Shown here: piece by piece, positions 2,060 through 24,483 of the stretch | How the letters are laid out: each line of letters begins with the position of its first letter | How positions within the stretch are numbered: position 1 is the stretch's first letter | Assembly: GCA_027080345.1 (NCBI GenBank) | Contig: JALWSB010000042.1 | Coordinates: 22,967 to 86,966, forward strand | Reading direction: 5' to 3' | Length of the DNA stretch: 64,000 bases | Origin: Robiginitomaculum sp. | Lineage (GTDB): Bacteria; Pseudomonadota; Alphaproteobacteria; Caulobacterales; Maricaulaceae | Program-made: the position numbers and the translations under genes | The notes under the pieces: generated by a model | Databases searched by the model: none | What the model saw: only the letters and a program-made list of their open reading frames with translations | Told to the model about the DNA's origin: nothing

Positions 2060-3415
2060 TTATCCGGCGCGCACTTTTTGCAAGAAGTCCTGCACCTGAC
2101 CGCGCATGGTCTCAGCCTGTTTGCCAAGTTCACCGGCCGCATCAACCACATTGCCCGACGCCGCGCCGGTCTCATTGGCCCCTTCCAGCACTTCGGCAAT
2201 GTTTTTGGAAACGTCTTGCGTACCGATTGCCGCTTCTTGGGTATTGCGGGCAATTTCCTGGGTCGCGGCGGACTGCTCTTCAACGGCGGCATTAATGGCC
2301 ACCGAAACCTCGTTCATCTCATCAATTGTGGCGCGAATAGAGGTAATCGCCTCGACCGACTGACCGGTAATTTCCTGCATGCTTTGAATTTGTGCGGCGA
2401 TATCTTCGGTCGCCTTGGCCGTCTGGGTGGCCAGGGATTTAACTTCCGAGGCAACAACCGCAAAGCCGCGCCCGGCCTCGCCGGCCCGCGCCGATTCAAT
2501 GGTCGCATTAAGCGCCAACAGGTTGGTTTGTTCGGCAATATCGGAAATCATATTAACTACCAGACCGACTTTTTCCGCCGCTTTGGCCAAAGATTCGATG
2601 GTGTCATTGGTGGTTTGCGCCCGCGTTACCGCCTGACTGGCAATCTCGGTGGAATGGGAAACCTGTTGGGCAATTTCGCTGACCGACGAGCCCATTTCTT
2701 CAGCCGCCGTGGCGACAACCGAAACATTGGCGGTGGCTTCTTCGGCGGCCGCCGACACAGTGGTGGATTTTTCCGATGTGTGTTCAGCGGTTTTGGCCAT
2801 GGTCTGCGCCGTTGTTTCCAGCTCGGTTGCCGCGGCGGCGACCGATTCAACAACGCCCATCACATTTTGCTCGAATGTGTCGGCCATTTCTTCCATAATG
2901 CGGTTTTTCTCCGCTTCGGTTTCTTCCAGATAAATGGAAATGGCAAAATCCATATCCAGCATTGCCGCCTTGGTAAGGGCGTTGATATAAAGCTCTCTTT
3001 TGTCGGCATTCTTGTCGCCACCAAGCCCTTTACCACTAAATTCCTTGGCAACAAAAACCGTTAACTCGGTCAAAATCATCGCATAACCGGCAATATACCA
3101 GCGTGGCTCAAGCCCCAGCCGGGCATGCACCTTGCCAATGGTGCGCACAGAGTTGACATAAGATTCATCAAACGTGCCGGTGGCAATATTCATCCAGTGG
3201 TCAAGCTGCTTTTGTTTGGCATGTTCCATCATGCCCGGCGTGGTGAAAAACCGCGCAACCTGCGGCCATTGGCGGATTTTGTCATAAAAAGCATCCAGAA
3301 TGCCCGGCAATTGCGCGGCAATATACGGTGACAATTCGCGCAAGGCTTCATCACAGCGCCCCCGCTCAATGCCGATAAATTTCATCCGCTCGTCAATGGC
3401 GATGGTATCTGTCAT
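2060..3415 (-). CDS. Globin-coupled methyl-accepting chemotaxis protein (HemAT-like soluble aerotaxis transducer)
   Basis: C-terminal MCP signalling domain with the conserved hairpin tip ([37 protein letters not shown]). N-terminal ~150 aa align by eye with globin-coupled sensors (DAFYDKI...; [19 protein letters not shown] resembles the HemAT proximal-His helix). No TM segment. ORF-track start 3496 trimmed to ATG 3415 ([11 protein letters not shown]), which has a GAGGGA RBS upstream. Confidence 0.85.
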
Positions 3416-3620
3416 GATCTGGTCCCTCTGGTCACAATAAGTTTGGGCGGCCAGCAAACAGATTCTCCCAATCCAGCCAGCGCCTTGAAAAGGCATAAGA
3501 AGGTGATTTGGTTACTAAATGATTAGCAAGAGCGTATTGCCAAAACACAATTAATACGTGTATTTTTATACAATGAATACCCACGTAAAGGTTGCAGGGT
3601 ATGGTGAAAAATCCATAGAT

Positions 3621-9192: not shown

Positions 9193-10365
9193 ATGCCCGA
9201 TGCCCACCCGCAAACAAATACAAAAAGCAAAACCGCCAAACCCCAGACGGTAAAAACAAGGACTGGCATTACCCTGCCGGAAAAACTGACCGGGCGGCTT
9301 GATGATATAGGGCATCAGGTTCGCACCTCACTGACGGATATTATGGGCATGGCGCGGCTGTTGCAGGAAACCGCCTTGAACGAGGAGCAAGCTGATTATG
9401 CCGACACCATTACCCGCTCCAGCCACGAATTGTTATTGCTGGTGGATAATTGCCTTGATCTGGAACGATTGGAAAATGGCACTTTGGGGGTCAGTGAAGA
9501 ACAGTTTGGAATCACCGAGGCCCTGTTATCGATGATTGAACGCATCCGCCCGACAGCGGCGGCCGCCGCCATGCCGATCAGTCTTGAATTTGCCCCGGAC
9601 ATTGATCACCACATTTGTTGCGACAAGGCCCGGCTTTCACAAATGGTTTACAACCTTGCCGCCTATCTTATTGCCAACAGCCAAAAGGGCGTGTTGCGCA
9701 TGGCCGCGTCTTTAAGTGAGGACGAATGGGGCGATCATTTAACGCTGGTTTTGAGCGCCGGCAAACCTTTAGAGACAAAAACAGATAGTGAAAAGCAAGG
9801 GAATATCGCCCTTGAAATGAGTAAAAAACTGGCCCGGCTGATGGGCGGTGACATCACTATTGAGCAACAGGAAAAGCAAAACATTTGCGCCACCGTTCAC
9901 ATTCGCGTTTCCACCACAGCCCAGGAAGAAGAAAACGCTGAACCGGAAAGAAAAGTCCGCCTGCTTGTGGCCGAAGACAGCCGCGCCAACCAACGCCTGA
10001 TTGGCCTGATCCTCTCCAAACTTGGCTATGACTATGACATGGTTGCCAATGGTGCCGAAGCCGTCGACGCGATTAATACCAGCCATTTTGATATGATCCT
10101 GATGGACCTGCACATGCCGGTTATGGACGGGTTTGCCGCCACCCGGGCCATTCGGGCGCTGGACGATGGGCGTGCCCGCACGCCGATTATTGCCCTGACA
10201 GCCGATGTCAGACCCCAGGCCCGCACCGAAGTTTTGAGCGCGGGCATGGATGCTTATCTGATCAAGCCCATTGATGTGCCCAAGCTGGCCCAGACAGTCG
10301 AAGACATGATGCTGCGCAATCGCACCGGGGGGACGCATGTGCCGGTCCAGCGCGCCAGCGCCTGA
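9193..10365 (+). CDS. Soluble HisKA - degenerate HATPase-like - receiver protein (hybrid kinase-like, probable phosphotransfer protein)
   Basis: H-box IGHQVRTSLTDIMGM. C-terminal REC (RLLVAEDSRANQ...DMILMDLHMPVMDG...ALTADV...KPID). By eye the N, G1 and G2 ATP-binding boxes are degenerate (see findings). TTG start 9148 trimmed to ATG 9193, which has an AAGGA RBS. Confidence 0.7.
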   Translation: MPDAHPQTNTKSKTAKPQTVKTRTGITLPEKLTGRLDDIGHQVRTSLTDIMGMARLLQETALNEEQADYADTITRSSHELLLLVDNCLDLERLENGTLGVSEEQFGITEALLSMIERIRPTAAAAAMPISLEFAPDIDHHICCDKARLSQMVYNLAAYLIANSQKGVLRMAASLSEDEWGDHLTLVLSAGKPLETKTDSEKQGNIALEMSKKLARLMGGDITIEQQEKQNICATVHIRVSTTAQEEENAEPERKVRLLVAEDSRANQRLIGLILSKLGYDYDMVANGAEAVDAINTSHFDMILMDLHMPVMDGFAATRAIRALDDGRARTPIIALTADVRPQARTEVLSAGMDAYLIKPIDVPKLAQTVEDMMLRNRTGGTHVPVQRASA

Positions 10366-10443
10366 GCAAAACGCTCACGCTGGCGTGCTTTGCGCCGATC
10401 ACCCAAAACTTACCAATATGGGTGTGTTGCCCGCCATCAAAAC

Positions 10444-10484
10444 CTTTGGACTTCTTTAACTTTGGTTAACGGGATTCCCATAGC
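10444..10484 (+). promoter_or_regulatory. Conserved ctrA upstream block, copy 1: TTAAC-N5-TTAAC direct repeat plus GANTC (GATTC)
   Basis: CTTTGGACTTCTTTAACTTTGGTTAACGGGATTCCCATAGC. TTAAC at 10456-10460 and 10466-10470. GATTC at 10473-10477. Only 4 mismatches to the block at 11371-11411. Confidence 0.5.
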
Positions 10485-10556
10485 CTGCAAATACGTTAAT
10501 AATACCATATCAGAAGCGGCCAAAGCCGCTTGGCGACAATTTAAAGGGAGGGGCTC

Positions 10557-11246
10557 ATGCGGGTACTCTTGATTGAGGATGATCACGCCACGGCACAAAT
10601 GATCAAATTGATGTTGAAATCAGAAGGCTTTGTCATCGATACAACCGAGCTGGGCGAAGAGGGTGTCGATATTGGTAAAATCTATGATTACGATATCATT
10701 CTTCTGGATTTGCAATTACCGGATATGCCCGGCTCTGAAGTCCTCAAGAAATTACGCCTTTCCAAGGTGGAAACCCCGGTCATTATTTTGTCGGGAACCT
10801 CTGACACCGAAGTGAAGATCAAAAACCTGGGATTTGGTGCGGATGATTATCTGACCAAACCTTTTAACAAAGGCGAGCTGATAGCCCGTATCCGCGCCGT
10901 GGTGCGGCGCTCCAAAGGTCATGCCCAATCGCTCATTACCACCGGGCCGGTTTGCGTCAATCTTGATGCCAAAACCGTTGAGATCAATAAACAGCGCATA
11001 CACCTGACCAGCAAGGAATATGAGATTCTGGAACTCTTATCCTTGCGTAAAGGATCAACCCTGACCAAGGAAATGTTCCTCAATCACCTTTATAACGGTA
11101 TGGATGAACCGGAACAGAAAATCATTGACGTGTTTATCTGCAAATTGCGTAAGAAAATTGCCGATGCCACTGGCAATAAAGACTTTATTGAAACCGTCTG
11201 GGGGCGCGGCTATGTGCTGAATGACCCCAAAGAAGAAGCGGCATAG
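10557..11246 (+). CDS. ctrA: Cell-cycle/motility response regulator CtrA, copy 1 (OmpR family)
   Basis: 229 aa. Near-collinear with CtrA as I remember it (MRVLLIEDD...[10 protein letters not shown]...[12 protein letters not shown]...[11 protein letters not shown]...[48 protein letters not shown]...[11 protein letters not shown]). Strong RBS AAAGGGAGGGG. Confidence 0.9.
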
Positions 11247-11277
11247 ACGAAAACACATAACATAGAGCACATTGAAA

Positions 11278-11303
11278 ACGGCCCCCTTCGGGGGTCGTTT
11301 TTT
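11278..11303 (+). terminator. Rho-independent terminator after ctrA copy 1
   Basis: ACGGCCCCC-TTC-GGGGGTCGT followed by a T6 run. Confidence 0.7.
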
Positions 11304-11370
11304 ATTTAACCGGCAATGGCCTGCGCTTTTTTCTTTCAAATATGAACACTTTTTTACGCGCCGCCAGAAT

Positions 11371-11411
11371 CTTTGGATTTGTTTAACTTTGGTTAAGGGG
11401 ATTCACATAGC
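11371..11411 (+). promoter_or_regulatory. Conserved ctrA upstream block, copy 2: TTAAC-N5-TTAAG plus GANTC
   Basis: CTTTGGATTTGTTTAACTTTGGTTAAGGGGATTCACATAGC. TTAAC at 11383-11387, TTAAG at 11393-11397, GATTC at 11400-11404. Confidence 0.5.
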
Positions 11412-11423
11412 GTAACGATGGAG

Positions 11424-11431
11424 TTAACCAT
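11424..11431 (+). promoter_or_regulatory. Perfect CtrA half-site TTAACCAT upstream of ctrA copy 2
   Basis: Read directly (gagTTAACCATgacg), 51 nt upstream of the ATG. No equivalent upstream of copy 1. Confidence 0.35.
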
Positions 11432-11481
11432 GACGCAGAAGAGCAAATAAAGTGATTCGGCGACAGTAAAGGGAGGGGCTC

Positions 11482-12171
11482 ATGCGGGTTCTCTTGATCG
11501 AGGATGATCGCGCAACAGCGCAAATGATTGAACTGATGTTAAAGCCGGAAGGGTTTATCATCGACACAACAGAACTGGGAGAAGACGGCGTCGAAATCGG
11601 CAAGATTTATGATCACGACATTATCCTTCTGGATCTGCAATTACCGGACATGTCCGGCTCTGATGTGTTAAAACAATTACGGCTGGCCAAGGTGGAAACA
11701 CCGGTGTTGATCCTGTCGGGCACCACCGATACCGAAGTTAAAGTCAAAAACCTGGGCTCTGGCGCAGACGATTATCTGACCAAACCTTTCCACAAGGATG
11801 AACTGGTCGCCCGCATCCGCGCCGTGGTGCGGCGCTCCAAAGGCCATGCCCAATCGCTCATCACCACCGGTTCGGTTTGTGTTAATCTTGATGCCAAAAC
11901 CGTCGATGTAAACAAACAGCGCGTCCATTTGACCGGCAAGGAATACCAGATGCTGGAGCTTTTGTCCTTGCGCAAGGGGACAACCTTGACCAAGGAAATG
12001 TTCCTCAACCACCTTTATGGTGGCATGGATGAGCCGGAACTGAAAATCATTGATGTATTTATCTGCAAATTGCGCAGAAAACTGGCCAATGCCACCGGCG
12101 GTGAACACTTTATCGAAACCGTTTGGGGGCGCGGCTATGTCCTGCGCGACCCGGAAAGAGAAGCCGCATAA
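11482..12171 (+). CDS. ctrA: Response regulator CtrA, copy 2 (tandem paralogue)
   Basis: 229 aa with no indels relative to copy 1. About 37 substitutions by hand count. Phospho-acceptor context [10 protein letters not shown] is retained. Same RBS as copy 1. Confidence 0.9.
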
Positions 12172-12193
12172 ACCCTCGCGCGACACCATGATG

Positions 12194-12220
12194 AAAACGG
12201 CCCCTCGCGGGGCCGTTTTT
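12194..12220. terminator. Bidirectional terminator between ctrA copy 2 and cheR
   Basis: AAAACGGCCCC-TCGC-GGGGCCGTTTT, a perfect 11-bp stem flanked by A-run and T-run. Confidence 0.75.
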
Positions 12221-12257
12221 ATGCCTGAATTATCGTAAAAACGAGGACTGCCCTCTA

Positions 12258-17954: not shown

Positions 17955-17985
17955 ATTTATATACACTTTTTACGTGTATATAAAT
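17955..17985. promoter_or_regulatory. Perfect 12-bp AT-rich inverted repeat between the ChpT-like gene and cheA
   Basis: ATTTATATACAC-TTTTTAC-GTGTATATAAAT. Abuts the ChpT-like stop codon. A second small palindrome CTCTG-AATA-CAGAG lies at 17941-17954. Confidence 0.4.
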
Positions 17986-18638
17986 TATTCGCTATTTTTG
18001 GTAAGAATCGTGAAGTCAACACCATCAGGTGTTTCAACCGCTTCAGCCCGCCCGCCAAGCTCCCGCGCCAGCAATCCAGTGTAAAAAGGCTGGATGCTAT
18101 GGCCATCAAACCCGTCTTCAGGGCATTGACCTTGCAAGATGGATTGAATTGTTGGTTTGAGTATGGTTTTGCCGCCGCGTACCGCAATGTGGACGCGTGC
18201 CATTGAATTACCTTCAATAGTAATTTCATTTTTTTTCAGCGCCGCCTCCTCGGCAAGAAGAGCCAGGTTAAGCAAAAGCCGGGCTTCAACTTTTGTCACT
18301 TCGGCAAAAGCGATACGCCAATCGAGCTTGATGTCAGAAATTTTATACAAATCTTCGACCACCTCTCTTAGTGTGTCTGTAAAAATATTGCCCTTAATGG
18401 CTGTCGCCGAGCCAAAAGCCAGTCGGGAAAAATTAAGTTTGGCCATGGCCAGATTGACATGCTCGTGTAGCATCTGACTTGCGTCTTCACGCAAACTGCC
18501 TTTGGCATGTTCTTCCAGATACTCCAGCGTCATTCCTATCGTACCCAGAGGCCCGGCAAAATCATGGCCCATCCGCGAACATAATATGGCCGCAAGGTCC
18601 AGGGGCGATATATCATAGGGTTCAATATTTTCGGGCAT
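17985..18638 (-). CDS. ChpT-family histidine phosphotransferase (HPTransfase-like)
   Basis: 217 aa, soluble. LAAILCSRMGHDFAGPLGTIGMTLEYL resembles the ChpT H-box as I remember it from Caulobacter (LAARLCHDFISPASAI). A second motif FSRLAFG is present. No ATP-binding boxes. Confidence 0.7.
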   Translation of the reverse strand: MPENIEPYDISPLDLAAILCSRMGHDFAGPLGTIGMTLEYLEEHAKGSLREDASQMLHEHVNLAMAKLNFSRLAFGSATAIKGNIFTDTLREVVEDLYKISDIKLDWRIAFAEVTKVEARLLLNLALLAEEAALKKNEITIEGNSMARVHIAVRGGKTILKPTIQSILQGQCPEDGFDGHSIQPFYTGLLARELGGRAEAVETPDGVDFTILTKNSE

Positions 18639-21981: not shown

Positions 21982-22566
21982 ATGCGCAAAACCCGTAATG
22001 AAAATGACCCGGTGGTGATTAAAAAATACGCCAATCGCCGTCTTTATGACACGGCCAAAAGCGCCTATGTCACCCTTGACGATCTGGCCGCCATGGTCCG
22101 GGCCGGGACTGATTTTGTGGTCCGGGATGCCAAAACCGGGGAGGATCTGACGCGCACAATCCTGACCCAGATTATTTTTGAGCAAGAAGGCCGGGACGGC
22201 CATTTATTGCCTGTTGATTTTTTGCGCCAACTGATCGGCTTTTATGGCGACAGCATGCAAGGCATGGTGCCGGGCTTTTTGGACATGAGCATGAAAACCC
22301 TGGCCGACAACCGTCACCGCATGCGCAAACAGATGAGCCAGGCCATGGGGCGCGAGTCTCTCAATCTGATCGAAGAGCAAATGCACAAGAACTTTGCCCT
22401 GTTTCAAAAAACCATGCAGATGTTTTCTCCTTTTACCATGGGGACCGGCGCGGATACGGCAAAAGAAAAAGCTGACGCACCTGCCAAAGATGATGATTTG
22501 AGCGCCCTGCGCGCGCAAATGGCCGCGATGCAGGAACAGCTCGACAAGCTGGATAAAAAAGGCTGA
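21982..22566 (+). CDS. phaR: Polyhydroxyalkanoate synthesis repressor
   Basis: 194 aa. N-terminal IKKYANRRLYDTAKSAYVTLDDLAAMV is the PhaR signature. Confidence 0.9.
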   Translation: MRKTRNENDPVVIKKYANRRLYDTAKSAYVTLDDLAAMVRAGTDFVVRDAKTGEDLTRTILTQIIFEQEGRDGHLLPVDFLRQLIGFYGDSMQGMVPGFLDMSMKTLADNRHRMRKQMSQAMGRESLNLIEEQMHKNFALFQKTMQMFSPFTMGTGADTAKEKADAPAKDDDLSALRAQMAAMQEQLDKLDKKG

Positions 22567-23133
22567 TCGGCACTGTTTCGTTTTGAAACAGCGCGTAAGG
22601 TCCGCCGCGATAATATTATGGTTAATTGCCTCTTAACGGCACAAAACCACCCTTTCTTTGCCAAAATTCAAGGCACGGGTTTTGCGCGCCATTGCGCATG
22701 GCAGCTATGGTATCATCTTTGGTCTATCCGGTTGCGGCGCAAAACCCGCCGCGGCGCCGCACGCGCAAAAACGCGGCAAAAAACCCACAAAAATCCATGC
22801 TGCCGGTCCCGGTTCAGCCGCGCACCCGCCACACCCCGTTGCCCGTATCAGGAAAGACCACTTTCTATCAGCCTGATTGCCGCTATCAGGCGCAGTGCCT
22901 TGCCGGATCTCCACGCCGGGGCCTTAAGGGCGACCCGCGTGAACAAGCGCGCATTCATGCGCTTTACGCCGCGCCCCCGGGCACAAAAGTGGCGCGCACA
23001 GTGCGCTGGGCTTAAGACCGTATATTTAAATACAAACTTATATAAAATTTATCCGCCGCGTTTACGTCATAATAAGGCGATGCTGTTAGGCTCTCTTCTG
23101 ACACGGATGTTACCGCAGTTTTGAGACGCCCTT

Positions 23134-24483
23134 ATGAAGTCACTTGCCGCCCATATTGATACACTGGAACCGCGCCGGTTCAGTGGCCGCATCACCGCCG
23201 TTAATGGCATGATGGTCGAAGCATCCGGCCCGGCAAGTGCACTGGAACTTGGCGCGCGGGGTGCGGCGCAAACCCGCCACGGCCCCGTCTCCTGCGAAGT
23301 TGTCGGCTTTCGCGGCTCCCATGCCCTGATGATGCCTTTCGGGCCGATGGAAGGCATGCGCGCCGGAACCCGGATGGACATTGACCCGGATGGGGCCTTT
23401 GTGCGCCCGAGCAGTGCCTGGCTTGGGCGAGTGGTTGATGCGTTTGGCACCCCGCTGGATGACGGCCCGCCGCTGATAAATGGTATGCACGCTTACCGCC
23501 TGCGGGGCCGTCCGCCCGCCGCCCACACCCGCACACGGGTTGGCGAGCGCATGGACACGGGCGTGCGCGCCATCAACACGTTTACGCAAATATGCAAAGG
23601 CCAGCGCATGGGTGTTTTTGCCGGCTCCGGGGTTGGCAAATCGGTATTGATGTCAATGCTGGCGAAAAATGCTGATTGTGATGTGACAGTTATCGGCCTG
23701 ATTGGCGAACGGGGCCGCGAGGTCAAGGAATTTATCGATGATGTGCTGGGGCCAGAGGGCTTGAAGCGCGCCGTTGTTGTTGTCGCCACGTCTGATGAAC
23801 CGGCCTTGAAACGCCGCCAGGCGGCGCAACTGACCCTGACCATATCAGAATTTTTCCGTGATCAGGGCAAGCATGTTTTATGCTTGATGGATTCGGTTAC
23901 CCGCTTTGCCATGGCCCAGCGCGAAATTGGTCTGGCCGCAGGCGAGCCACCAACCACCAGAGGCTACACGCCATCGGTCTTTAATGAATTGCCACGGCTT
24001 TTGGAGCGCGCCGGGCCGGGCAGACGCACCGATGGCCGCCCGGAAGGGGCGATTACCGGTATTTTTACCGTTCTGGTCGATGGCGATGATCATAATGAAC
24101 CCATTGCCGACGCGGCGCGGGGTATTCTGGATGGTCATATTGTCATGGAGCGGGCGATTGCCGAACGGGGCCGCTTTCCCGCCATTAACATCCTTAAAAG
24201 CATTTCGCGCACCATGCCCGGATGCTGCCGCGACGATGAATTGCCGCTGATCAAAGAGGCCCGCCGGGCCTTGGCTGATTATGCCGATATGGAAGAACTG
24301 ATCCGGCTTGGGGCCTATGCCCGCGGATCAAACGAGGGCGTTGATCGCGCCATCGCATTGAATGAACCGCTGGAAGCGTTTTTAGCGCAGAGTAAAGAAG
24401 AAGCCACCTCAACCGAGGAGAGCTTCCACCGCCTGCGTGCGATTATGGGTGACAATAACGGACCGGAACAACCGGTCGTATGA
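23134..24483 (+). CDS. fliI: Flagellum-specific ATP synthase
   Basis: 449 aa. Walker A GSGVGKS, Walker B LCLMDS, F1/T3SS ATPase fold. Confidence 0.93.

Follow-up and report, generated by a model that had tools for sequence, protein, structure and literature searches.

Introduction

CtrA is the central cell-cycle and development regulator of the Alphaproteobacteria, and in model species a single gene supplies it, under tight control of its amount, timing, phosphorylation and proteolysis. In Caulobacter crescentus, as in other Caulobacterales and Hyphomonadaceae, this single-copy ctrA belongs to the CckA-ChpT-CtrA phosphorelay; the gene is itself under methylation-, GcrA- and CtrA-controlled promoters, in which, in Caulobacter, a GANTC site is combined with a repressing TTAA half-site and an activating TTAA-N7-TTAA site. 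The C-terminal Ala-Ala of the Caulobacter protein is a signal for its proteolysis by ClpXP. Here we describe a locus at which this regulator is encoded twice, in a stretch of 64,000 nucleotides from Robiginitomaculum sp. (GenBank assembly GCA_027080345.1, contig JALWSB010000042.1, positions 22,967 to 86,966 of the forward strand), hereafter the window, whose own numbering is used for all coordinates.

Response-regulator duplication followed by insulation or subfunctionalisation is a general model for the expansion of two-component systems, and the two ctrA genes of the window resemble other diverged paralogue pairs in being a duplicated OmpR/PhoB-family regulator with asymmetric substitution. 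They differ in that no duplicated kinase or phosphotransferase is found with them within the window, and in that the gene copied here is a global regulator of the cell cycle, of which model species keep the dosage under tight control. Family and pathway are both familiar; the novelty lies in a chromosomal, in-locus tandem pair of ctrA paralogues that have diverged asymmetrically in both protein and promoter.

The duplicated ctrA unit

The two genes, ctrA1 (10557-11246) and ctrA2 (11482-12171), lie head-to-tail on the forward strand with their starts 925 bp apart, and each encodes a protein of 229 amino acids. The proteins align with no indels and exactly 37 amino acid differences (83.8% identity), and 128 of the 690 nucleotides differ, divided 33, 9 and 86 over the first, second and third codon positions. 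Both exceed the curated whole-protein cut-off (350 bits) of NF045991, the NCBIfam equivalog model for the response regulator transcription factor CtrA, with 392.3 bits for CtrA1 and 403.9 bits for CtrA2, while the runner-up family for each, PmrA, reaches 172 and 163 bits against a cut-off of 330, which is under half the CtrA score. Each protein consists of a receiver domain (REC, PF00072, residues 3-113) and an OmpR/PhoB-type winged helix (Trans_reg_C, PF00486, residues 146-221), and D8, D9, the phospho-acceptor D51, S79/T81 and K101 are kept in both. The C-terminal tails read KEEAA and EREAA, so that both proteins finish in -EAA. In family, phospho-acceptor, domain organisation and C-terminal Ala-Ala the pair is like the single CtrA of Caulobacter and its allies.

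The homology extends past the coding sequence on the promoter side, as seen in a blastn self-match of 10432-11245 with 11359-12170 at 80.5% identity. Upstream of ctrA1 is a 41-nt promoter block, CTTTGGACTTCTTTAACTTTGGTTAACGGGATTCCCATAGC (10444-10484, + strand), which holds two TTAA half-sites 6 nt apart and a GANTC site (GATTC at 10473); its counterpart upstream of ctrA2, CTTTGGATTTGTTTAACTTTGGTTAAGGGGATTCACATAGC (11371-11411, + strand), is identical at 37 of 41 positions and has its GANTC site at 11400, with another at 11367. Upstream GANTC sites and TTAA-type motifs are likewise found at the P1 and P2 promoters of Caulobacter ctrA. The ribosome-binding region of ctrA1, AAAGGGAGGGGCTC (10543-10556, +), recurs with the same sequence at ctrA2 (11468-11481, +), and the identity runs on over the string AAAGGGAGGGGCTCATG (10543-10559 and 11468-11484), whose core, GGGAGGGG, is conserved in four of the five single-copy relatives introduced below.

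Downstream, each gene is followed by a predicted intrinsic terminator, GAAAACGGCCCCCTTCGGGGGTCGTTTTTTATTT after ctrA1 (11274-11307, +; -20.4 kcal/mol, z -4.0) and GAAAACGGCCCCTCGCGGGGCCGTTTTTAT after ctrA2 (12193-12222, +; -24.1 kcal/mol, z -5.2), the latter between the convergent ctrA2 and cheR. Both are a GC hairpin with a U-run, and none of 200 shuffled sequences folded as stably; a consensus terminator scan detected neither hairpin, their stems running into the A and U tracts. The two terminators are homologous to each other in sequence and position, and a hairpin homologous in position to that of ctrA1 follows the single ctrA in L082/L083. An Rfam scan of the whole window returned no matches.

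An earlier note on this DNA, made from the letters and their open reading frames, had described much of this: two 229-residue CtrA proteins encoded head-to-tail about 925 bp apart, without indels and with about 37 substitutions, diverged mainly at third positions (86 of the 128 nucleotide differences), with the phospho-acceptor context, the DNA-binding wing and the KEEAA and EREAA tails in place, and with the same ribosome-binding site, a conserved 41-nt upstream block and a GC hairpin terminator at each copy. All of these features are present as claimed and, with promoter block, ribosome-binding site, coding sequence and terminator all paired, the duplication does encompass a complete ctrA transcription unit.

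The source of the window is evidently metagenome-derived, and it might be supposed that an assembler had joined strain variants of a single ctrA head-to-tail. A separate metagenome scaffold, the 71-kb scaffold_306 of ENA ERZ23491061, carries the identical pair; over 12.1 kb it agrees with the window at 99.9%, with one internal single-nucleotide polymorphism, no differences within the pair and a different contig end. The independence of this second assembly is partial, as both assemblies may derive from the same or related samples. The copies themselves are not confusable by an assembler, being about 81% identical in nucleotides with a longest shared run of 29 nt, and the 235-nt junction between them is unique sequence, in which the ctrA1 terminator is followed by a promoter bearing motifs that ctrA1 does not have. 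Moreover, neither variant occurs elsewhere among 5.8 billion proteins, which would be odd for co-occurring strains 19% apart. Because of the identical second scaffold, the absence of any identical run above 29 nt and the unique junction, an assembler artefact is very unlikely, as the earlier note had also held, and we give such a chimera hardly any chance.

Origin of the pair

Five related genomes or contigs (L082, L085, L093, L094 and L095), at a distance from the window of roughly genus to family (UvrC 77% and CheA 68% identity), have one ctrA each, and in all five it is divergent from fliI-fliJ and convergent with cheR-cheB-cheY-cheW-cheA. The same arrangement, with ctrA between fliIJ and cheR-cheA, is found in Azospirillum (L092). 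In the window it is ctrA2 that is convergent with cheR, exactly as in these six, and ctrA1 is the extra copy, since it has no counterpart in those single-copy genomes. The comparison with related genomes that had been proposed for this locus thus gives a clear answer: with a single ctrA in five of five relatives, the pair is not clade-wide.

The best matches among the 5.8 billion proteins, several of them named Robiginitomaculum sp., share 79-80% identity with ctrA1 and 85-86% with ctrA2; for the nearest single-copy orthologues the values are 85.6% to ctrA2 as compared to 79% to ctrA1. Neither these proteins nor the JGI metagenomes yielded an orthologue of either copy above 86% identity. Relative to the consensus of 108 close CtrAs the copies have 17 derived residues in common, and they are sisters in 93% of neighbour-joining bootstraps with the whole protein and in 99.7% with REC alone. 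The G+C content at third codon positions is 0.55 and 0.61 in the two copies and 0.59 +/- 0.05 in the neighbouring genes. The core of the promoter block, TTTAACTTTGGTTAA[CG]GGGATTC, lies upstream of ctrA in each of the five single-copy relatives and is missing from the other 80 alphaproteobacterial ctrA loci first fetched. On the basis of the sister grouping, the 17 shared derived residues, the clade-specific promoter block and the position of the terminators, the comparison points to lineage-specific in-place duplicates (in-paralogues).

Alternatively, the second ctrA might have been gained by horizontal transfer, for instance from a Methylobacterium-like plasmid, and inserted beside the resident gene. 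Extra ctrA genes do travel on plasmids, and trees built from the DNA-binding domain alone do not pair the two copies. Set against this are the shared derived residues and the sister support just given, the promoter block, ribosome-binding site and terminator common to both copies, the native third-position composition of both, and the lack of a closer donor in any database searched. A recent gene conversion might in principle make unrelated copies look like sisters; we tried conversion as a candidate and found no significant signal (permutation p 0.19 for sliding windows and 0.08 for the longest identical run), and dS, the synonymous divergence, is no smaller for the receiver domain than for the DNA-binding domain, so that no conversion need be invoked and the sisterhood is not readily dismissed as its product. 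We consider that transfer has only a slim chance of being correct, and continue with in-place duplication.

Age and selection

By the method of Nei and Gojobori (NG86) the two genes differ with a nonsynonymous divergence (dN) of 0.087 and a dS of 0.905, giving a dN/dS of 0.096 (receiver domain 0.07, DNA-binding domain 0.13). With dS near 0.9 and dN/dS near 0.10, the duplication is old, with synonymous change nearing saturation, and purifying selection acts on both genes. The promoters are also under constraint, since the promoter block has stayed 90% identical in the face of differences at 53% of synonymous sites; so few mismatches in the block would be expected under drift at the neutral-site rate with P <=2e-5.

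We also weighed whether ctrA1 is a decaying copy on its way to a pseudogene. Its faster change and its loss of promoter motifs (see below) would both fit decay. Yet it retains 229 intact codons without indels and an identical ribosome-binding site, its promoter block retains 90% identity, third positions account for 86 of the 128 nucleotide differences, and the protein scores above the CtrA equivalog cut-off. Its own branch, with a dN of 0.068 over a dS of about 0.45 per branch, has an omega (dN/dS) of roughly 0.15, and neither copy has a frameshift, a stop codon or a dN/dS near 1. Decay has, in our estimation, practically no chance of being the explanation. The earlier note had reasoned likewise that this was an old duplication under purifying selection rather than a decaying copy, and had named dN/dS between the copies as the quantity to calculate; the value obtained, 0.096, is far below the value near 1 that would signify relaxed selection.

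Asymmetric divergence of the proteins

When the 37 differences were polarised against the 108 close CtrAs, 21 could be placed on ctrA1, 10 on ctrA2 and 6 were undecided. The receiver domain has changed about equally in both (8 on ctrA1, 7 on ctrA2), as compared to a split of 13 to 3 in the DNA-binding domain (binomial p about 0.01-0.02). Branch dN, computed with two outgroups, is 0.068 for ctrA1 and 0.015 for ctrA2, so that nonsynonymous change is about 4.6 times higher on ctrA1, and within the DNA-binding domain it is 0.09 as against approximately zero. ctrA2 is hence the conservative, ancestral-type paralogue, in the ancestral position, and ctrA1 the derived, faster-evolving one that bears nearly all of the change in the DNA-binding domain.

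Many of the ctrA1 changes fall at positions at least 97% conserved among the 108 close CtrAs, namely G152S, Q156E, M157I, T167S, G180N, L187Q, L201I, G207N and R222N. An AlphaFold model was used for the secondary structure of the DNA-binding domain only, where pLDDT (the model's per-residue confidence) is about 80; the receiver part, with pLDDT below 50 over residues 24-123, was left unused. In this model the ctrA1 changes map to helix alpha1 (residues 152-163), the turn between alpha1 and alpha2, the alpha2-alpha3 loop, the end of alpha3 and positions flanking the wing, including the connector preceding the wing and the residue following it; the recognition helix and the strands of the wing remain essentially intact. 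T167S, G180N and L187Q are inside residues 167-191, and T168 and T170 are intact in both proteins. According to Delaby et al., residues 167-191 of CtrA are highly conserved and contain T168 and T170, whose side chains set the preference of Caulobacter CtrA for late-S versus G1 promoters. In the receiver domain, ctrA1 has E17K in alpha1 and N104 and G106 in the beta5-alpha5 loop, and ctrA2 has S22P. Substitutions in the alpha4-beta5-alpha5 region and in the C-terminal tail may, as the earlier note proposed, bear on dimerisation, partner choice or proteolysis.

These positions suggest another possible role for ctrA1, that of a modulator which forms heterodimers with CtrA2, or competes with it for CtrA boxes or for ChpT phosphate, and in this way dampens or redirects the output of CtrA2. 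The changes cluster on surfaces of the DNA-binding domain that do not contact DNA, among them the alpha2-alpha3 loop (G180N, L187Q), which in OmpR/PhoB-family regulators contacts RNA polymerase. In response regulators generally, receiver alpha1 and the beta5-alpha5 loop determine partner specificity, and it is here that E17K, N104 and G106 are found. An ordinary activator fits equally well, with D51, K101 and the dimerisation region largely conserved, and we regard a modulator as unlikely.

Divergence of the regulatory regions

An alignment of the regions upstream of ctrA1, ctrA2 and the single ctrA of the five relatives has three conserved elements between -125 and the ribosome-binding site: the distal block, with its GGATTC GANTC site and two TTAA half-sites 6 nt apart; GAGTTAAC[CT]AT; and TGATTCG. 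All three are present upstream of ctrA2 and in five of five relatives, and ctrA1 retains the block only. In its diverged leader (10495-10531, +), GTTAATAAT replaces GAGTTAAC[CT]AT, and a palindrome with a 7-bp stem, AAGCGGCcaaaGCCGCTT (10514-10531, +), stands in place of TGATTCG. The palindrome was considered as a structured RNA and rejected, as its fold is no better than that of shuffled sequence (z -0.03).

Of the motifs kept upstream of ctrA2 only, the first includes TTAACCAT (11424-11431, +), which we take to be a motif of the CtrA half-site type and which has here its sole occurrence on the + strand of the window. The second, TGATTCG (11453-11459, +), is a GANTC methylation site that matches the GcrA consensus; at methylated promoters the best GcrA recognition consensus is TGATTCG, and more broadly YGAKTCK (PMC4647560). 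The block shared by both copies is itself not a canonical CtrA box, a candidate that we rejected because its TTAA spacing is N6, not N7. By analogy with the Caulobacter promoters we infer that ctrA2 keeps the full ancestral control and that ctrA1 has lost part of it. The picture of two complete units drawn in the earlier note needs refinement: block, ribosome-binding site and terminator are indeed found at both copies, and the units are nonetheless unequal, ctrA1 being without two conserved motifs and carrying most of the protein change.

This asymmetry bears on the simplest functional account, in which the two genes are redundant dosage duplicates encoding interchangeable CtrA, more or more robust expression being useful and the differences neutral or nearly so. 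The phospho-acceptor pocket, recognition helix, wing, ribosome-binding site, distal block and C-terminal Ala-Ala are the same in both, and both proteins are above the CtrA equivalog cut-off, all of which speaks for such an account. Full redundancy is, however, not expected to last to a dS of about 0.9 with both copies at a dN/dS of about 0.1, the change is strongly one-sided and at positions otherwise at least 97% conserved, and ctrA1 alone is without two cis-motifs that are kept in six of six other promoters. We find plain redundancy rather doubtful.

Rarity of the arrangement and other extra ctrA genes

The supposition that CtrA is normally single-copy stands as a rule. No second CtrA-like gene was found in the fetched flanks of any of 170 ctrA loci from other organisms (tblastn, E <= 1e-30), 121 of which are flanked by 1.2 kb or more on either side, and no ctrA1 orthologue or other tandem pair was found in the genome collection (80 loci), the JGI metagenomes (80 loci), the 5.8 billion proteins or plasmids. 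Full-text literature searches found no paper on ctrA paralogues, tandem ctrA or plasmid-borne ctrA, in keeping with the earlier impression that tandem ctrA is not a described feature.

The rule is not absolute. A tblastn search of PLSDB gave ctrA genes annotated by the NCBI pipeline PGAP on ten Methylobacterium plasmids, nine of 37-67 kb and one of 586 kb, and further plasmid ctrA genes on a 95-kb plasmid of Mesorhizobium sp. AR02 and a 220-kb plasmid of Sphingomonas sp. JE1; NZ_CP107534.1 (L090) is one of these plasmid records. The one plasmid ctrA whose surroundings were inspected is solitary, with MucR, a transposase and DMT transporters as unrelated neighbours, and one Methylobacterium plasmid carries a MucR-family regulator about 8 kb away. 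These are likewise extra ctrA genes, presumably beside a chromosomal ctrA, and the copy number is evidently not fixed at one; they differ from the pair described here in residing on mobile or accessory replicons, whereas the pair is chromosomal, at the ancestral locus, monophyletic and of local duplication.

As a separate observation, five top-scoring database proteins named CtrA (P0001, P0004, P0005, P0033 and P0035; 261-350 amino acids, on contigs of 1-3 kb) have CtrA segments repeated within them. By their appearance they are assembly chimeras of strains that occur together, and they inflate the bit scores in homology lists.

Genomic surroundings

Upstream of ctrA1 is a gene (9193-10365, +) whose product is a soluble protein made up of HisKA, degenerate ATP-binding and receiver domains. 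The match of this protein to HATPase_c is only partial (E 0.003), and neither a second N-box Asn nor a G1 or G2 box can be recognised by eye; the architecture resembles ChpT plus a receiver domain. Orthologues with 51-57% identity (P0122-P0135, about 365 amino acids, with no HATPase_c Pfam match) occur in Robiginitomaculum-like metagenome-assembled genomes, where they lie in a uvrC-folB-SDR-Na/Ca-exchanger neighbourhood with no ctrA nearby. We considered this gene as a dedicated partner co-acquired with ctrA1 and rejected co-acquisition, since its orthologues keep their own locus away from ctrA; its adjacency to ctrA1 is for the same reason a product of rearrangement, and a functional link between the two may still exist.

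Unlike the locus of the relatives, the fliIJ side of the neighbourhood has been rearranged away. fliI (23134-24483, +) is 11 kb from the pair and is followed by flhA, a sigma-54 activator, fliG, fliF and hook genes; the ancestral divergent layout of fliJ-fliI and ctrA is broken, and the segment from ctrA through the che genes to chpT is inverted relative to fliI. The arrangement would fit an inversion of which one breakpoint fell between fliI and ctrA, in their former intergenic region. The stretches concerned are 10366-10443 and 22500-23133, and the left junction, beside the HisKA-receiver gene, sits directly upstream of the ctrA1 promoter block.

As in Caulobacter-type systems, a chpT homologue is at hand. 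The gene for this ChpT-type histidine phosphotransferase (17985-18638, - strand) is directly beyond cheA and 6 kb from the pair; its product matches PF10090 with 76.4 bits and the NCBIfam ChpT models with 147.5 and 143 bits, below their cut-offs of 225 and 240. In L082/L083 the place beyond cheA is taken by a gene for a TonB-dependent receptor. The only canonical TTAA-N7-TTAA in the window, within TTAATTGCCTCTTAA (22618-22636, with the box at 22622), overlaps a reverse-strand TTAACCAT; situated about 500 bp upstream of fliI, it is likely a CtrA target of the flagellar class II genes. Farther away, a gene for a protoglobin-type methyl-accepting chemotaxis protein, a globin-coupled chemoreceptor (2060-3496, -), is upstream of the uvrC block and has the same position in the relatives L087/L088.

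Discussion

The history that best explains this locus is that an ancestral ctrA unit of about 925 bp, comprising the promoter block, leader and ribosome-binding site, coding sequence and terminator, was duplicated head-to-tail in this lineage. The event would postdate the split from the Robiginitomaculum-like relatives and would be old enough for synonymous sites to have nearly saturated. Both copies would still encode phosphorylatable CtrA-type response regulators, each very probably transcribed from its own promoter and stopped by its own terminator. ctrA2, beside cheR, with a nearly unchanged DNA-binding domain and the full upstream region including TTAACCAT and the GcrA/CcrM-type methylation site TGATTCG, continues the ancestral type, and ctrA1 has kept only the distal block and the ribosome-binding site, with its protein change concentrated on the surface of the DNA-binding domain. 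As compared to a Caulobacter-type single ctrA there are two genes, the full set of cis-motifs of the relatives is found only at ctrA2, and the DNA-binding-domain surface of ctrA1 is derived.

We would expect CtrA1 and CtrA2 to act on the same or very similar TTAA-type sites and to differ in promoter-class preference or in partners. On balance we favour the reading that the pair represents differently timed or differently regulated versions of CtrA, arisen by regulatory and functional subfunctionalisation after an old in-lineage tandem duplication, and we consider this somewhat probable. The duplication, its age, the selection on both copies, the asymmetry and the loss of motifs are established here, and separate transcription, different timing and different activity of the copies are predictions that go beyond them.

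A number of points weigh against this reading. Separate promoters, timing and protein levels are all predicted from the DNA and its translation, and what TTAACCAT and TGATTCG do in this organism is presumed from the Caulobacter case. CtrA autoregulation through the shared block is uncertain, its TTAA half-sites being 6 nt apart and not the canonical 7. The recognition helix and wing are nearly identical, and the copies may be plainly redundant at the DNA level; over the whole protein the excess of changes on ctrA1 is only borderline (p 0.05-0.07). In the tree of the DNA-binding domain alone the copies are not sisters, with 10% bootstrap, which we attribute to the long ctrA1 branch and which may leave room for a more complex history. 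cckA, gcrA, ccrM, sciP and cpdR were not seen within the window, and the organism is known from metagenome assemblies only.

More specifically, one might speculate that the paralogues have split the jobs of a single CtrA between a CtrA2 fed by GcrA, methylation and CtrA and a differently timed CtrA1, with heterodimers as a further possibility. The 167-191 region and the alpha2-alpha3 loop of CtrA1 may then bias it toward one promoter class (late-S versus G1) or toward silencing of the replication origin. We put this forward tentatively, as a possibility that we are inclined to doubt. If it were true, the locus would offer a natural genetic separation of functions that are otherwise separable only by point mutants such as those at T168 and T170.

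The practical value of the pair is limited, as the organism is uncultured and the functional statements made here are derived from sequence. Nonetheless, for a regulator that model species control so tightly from one gene, two long-kept, selected and diverged copies of ctrA represent a natural experiment, one that could show which functions of CtrA are separable and which residues and cis-elements are responsible.

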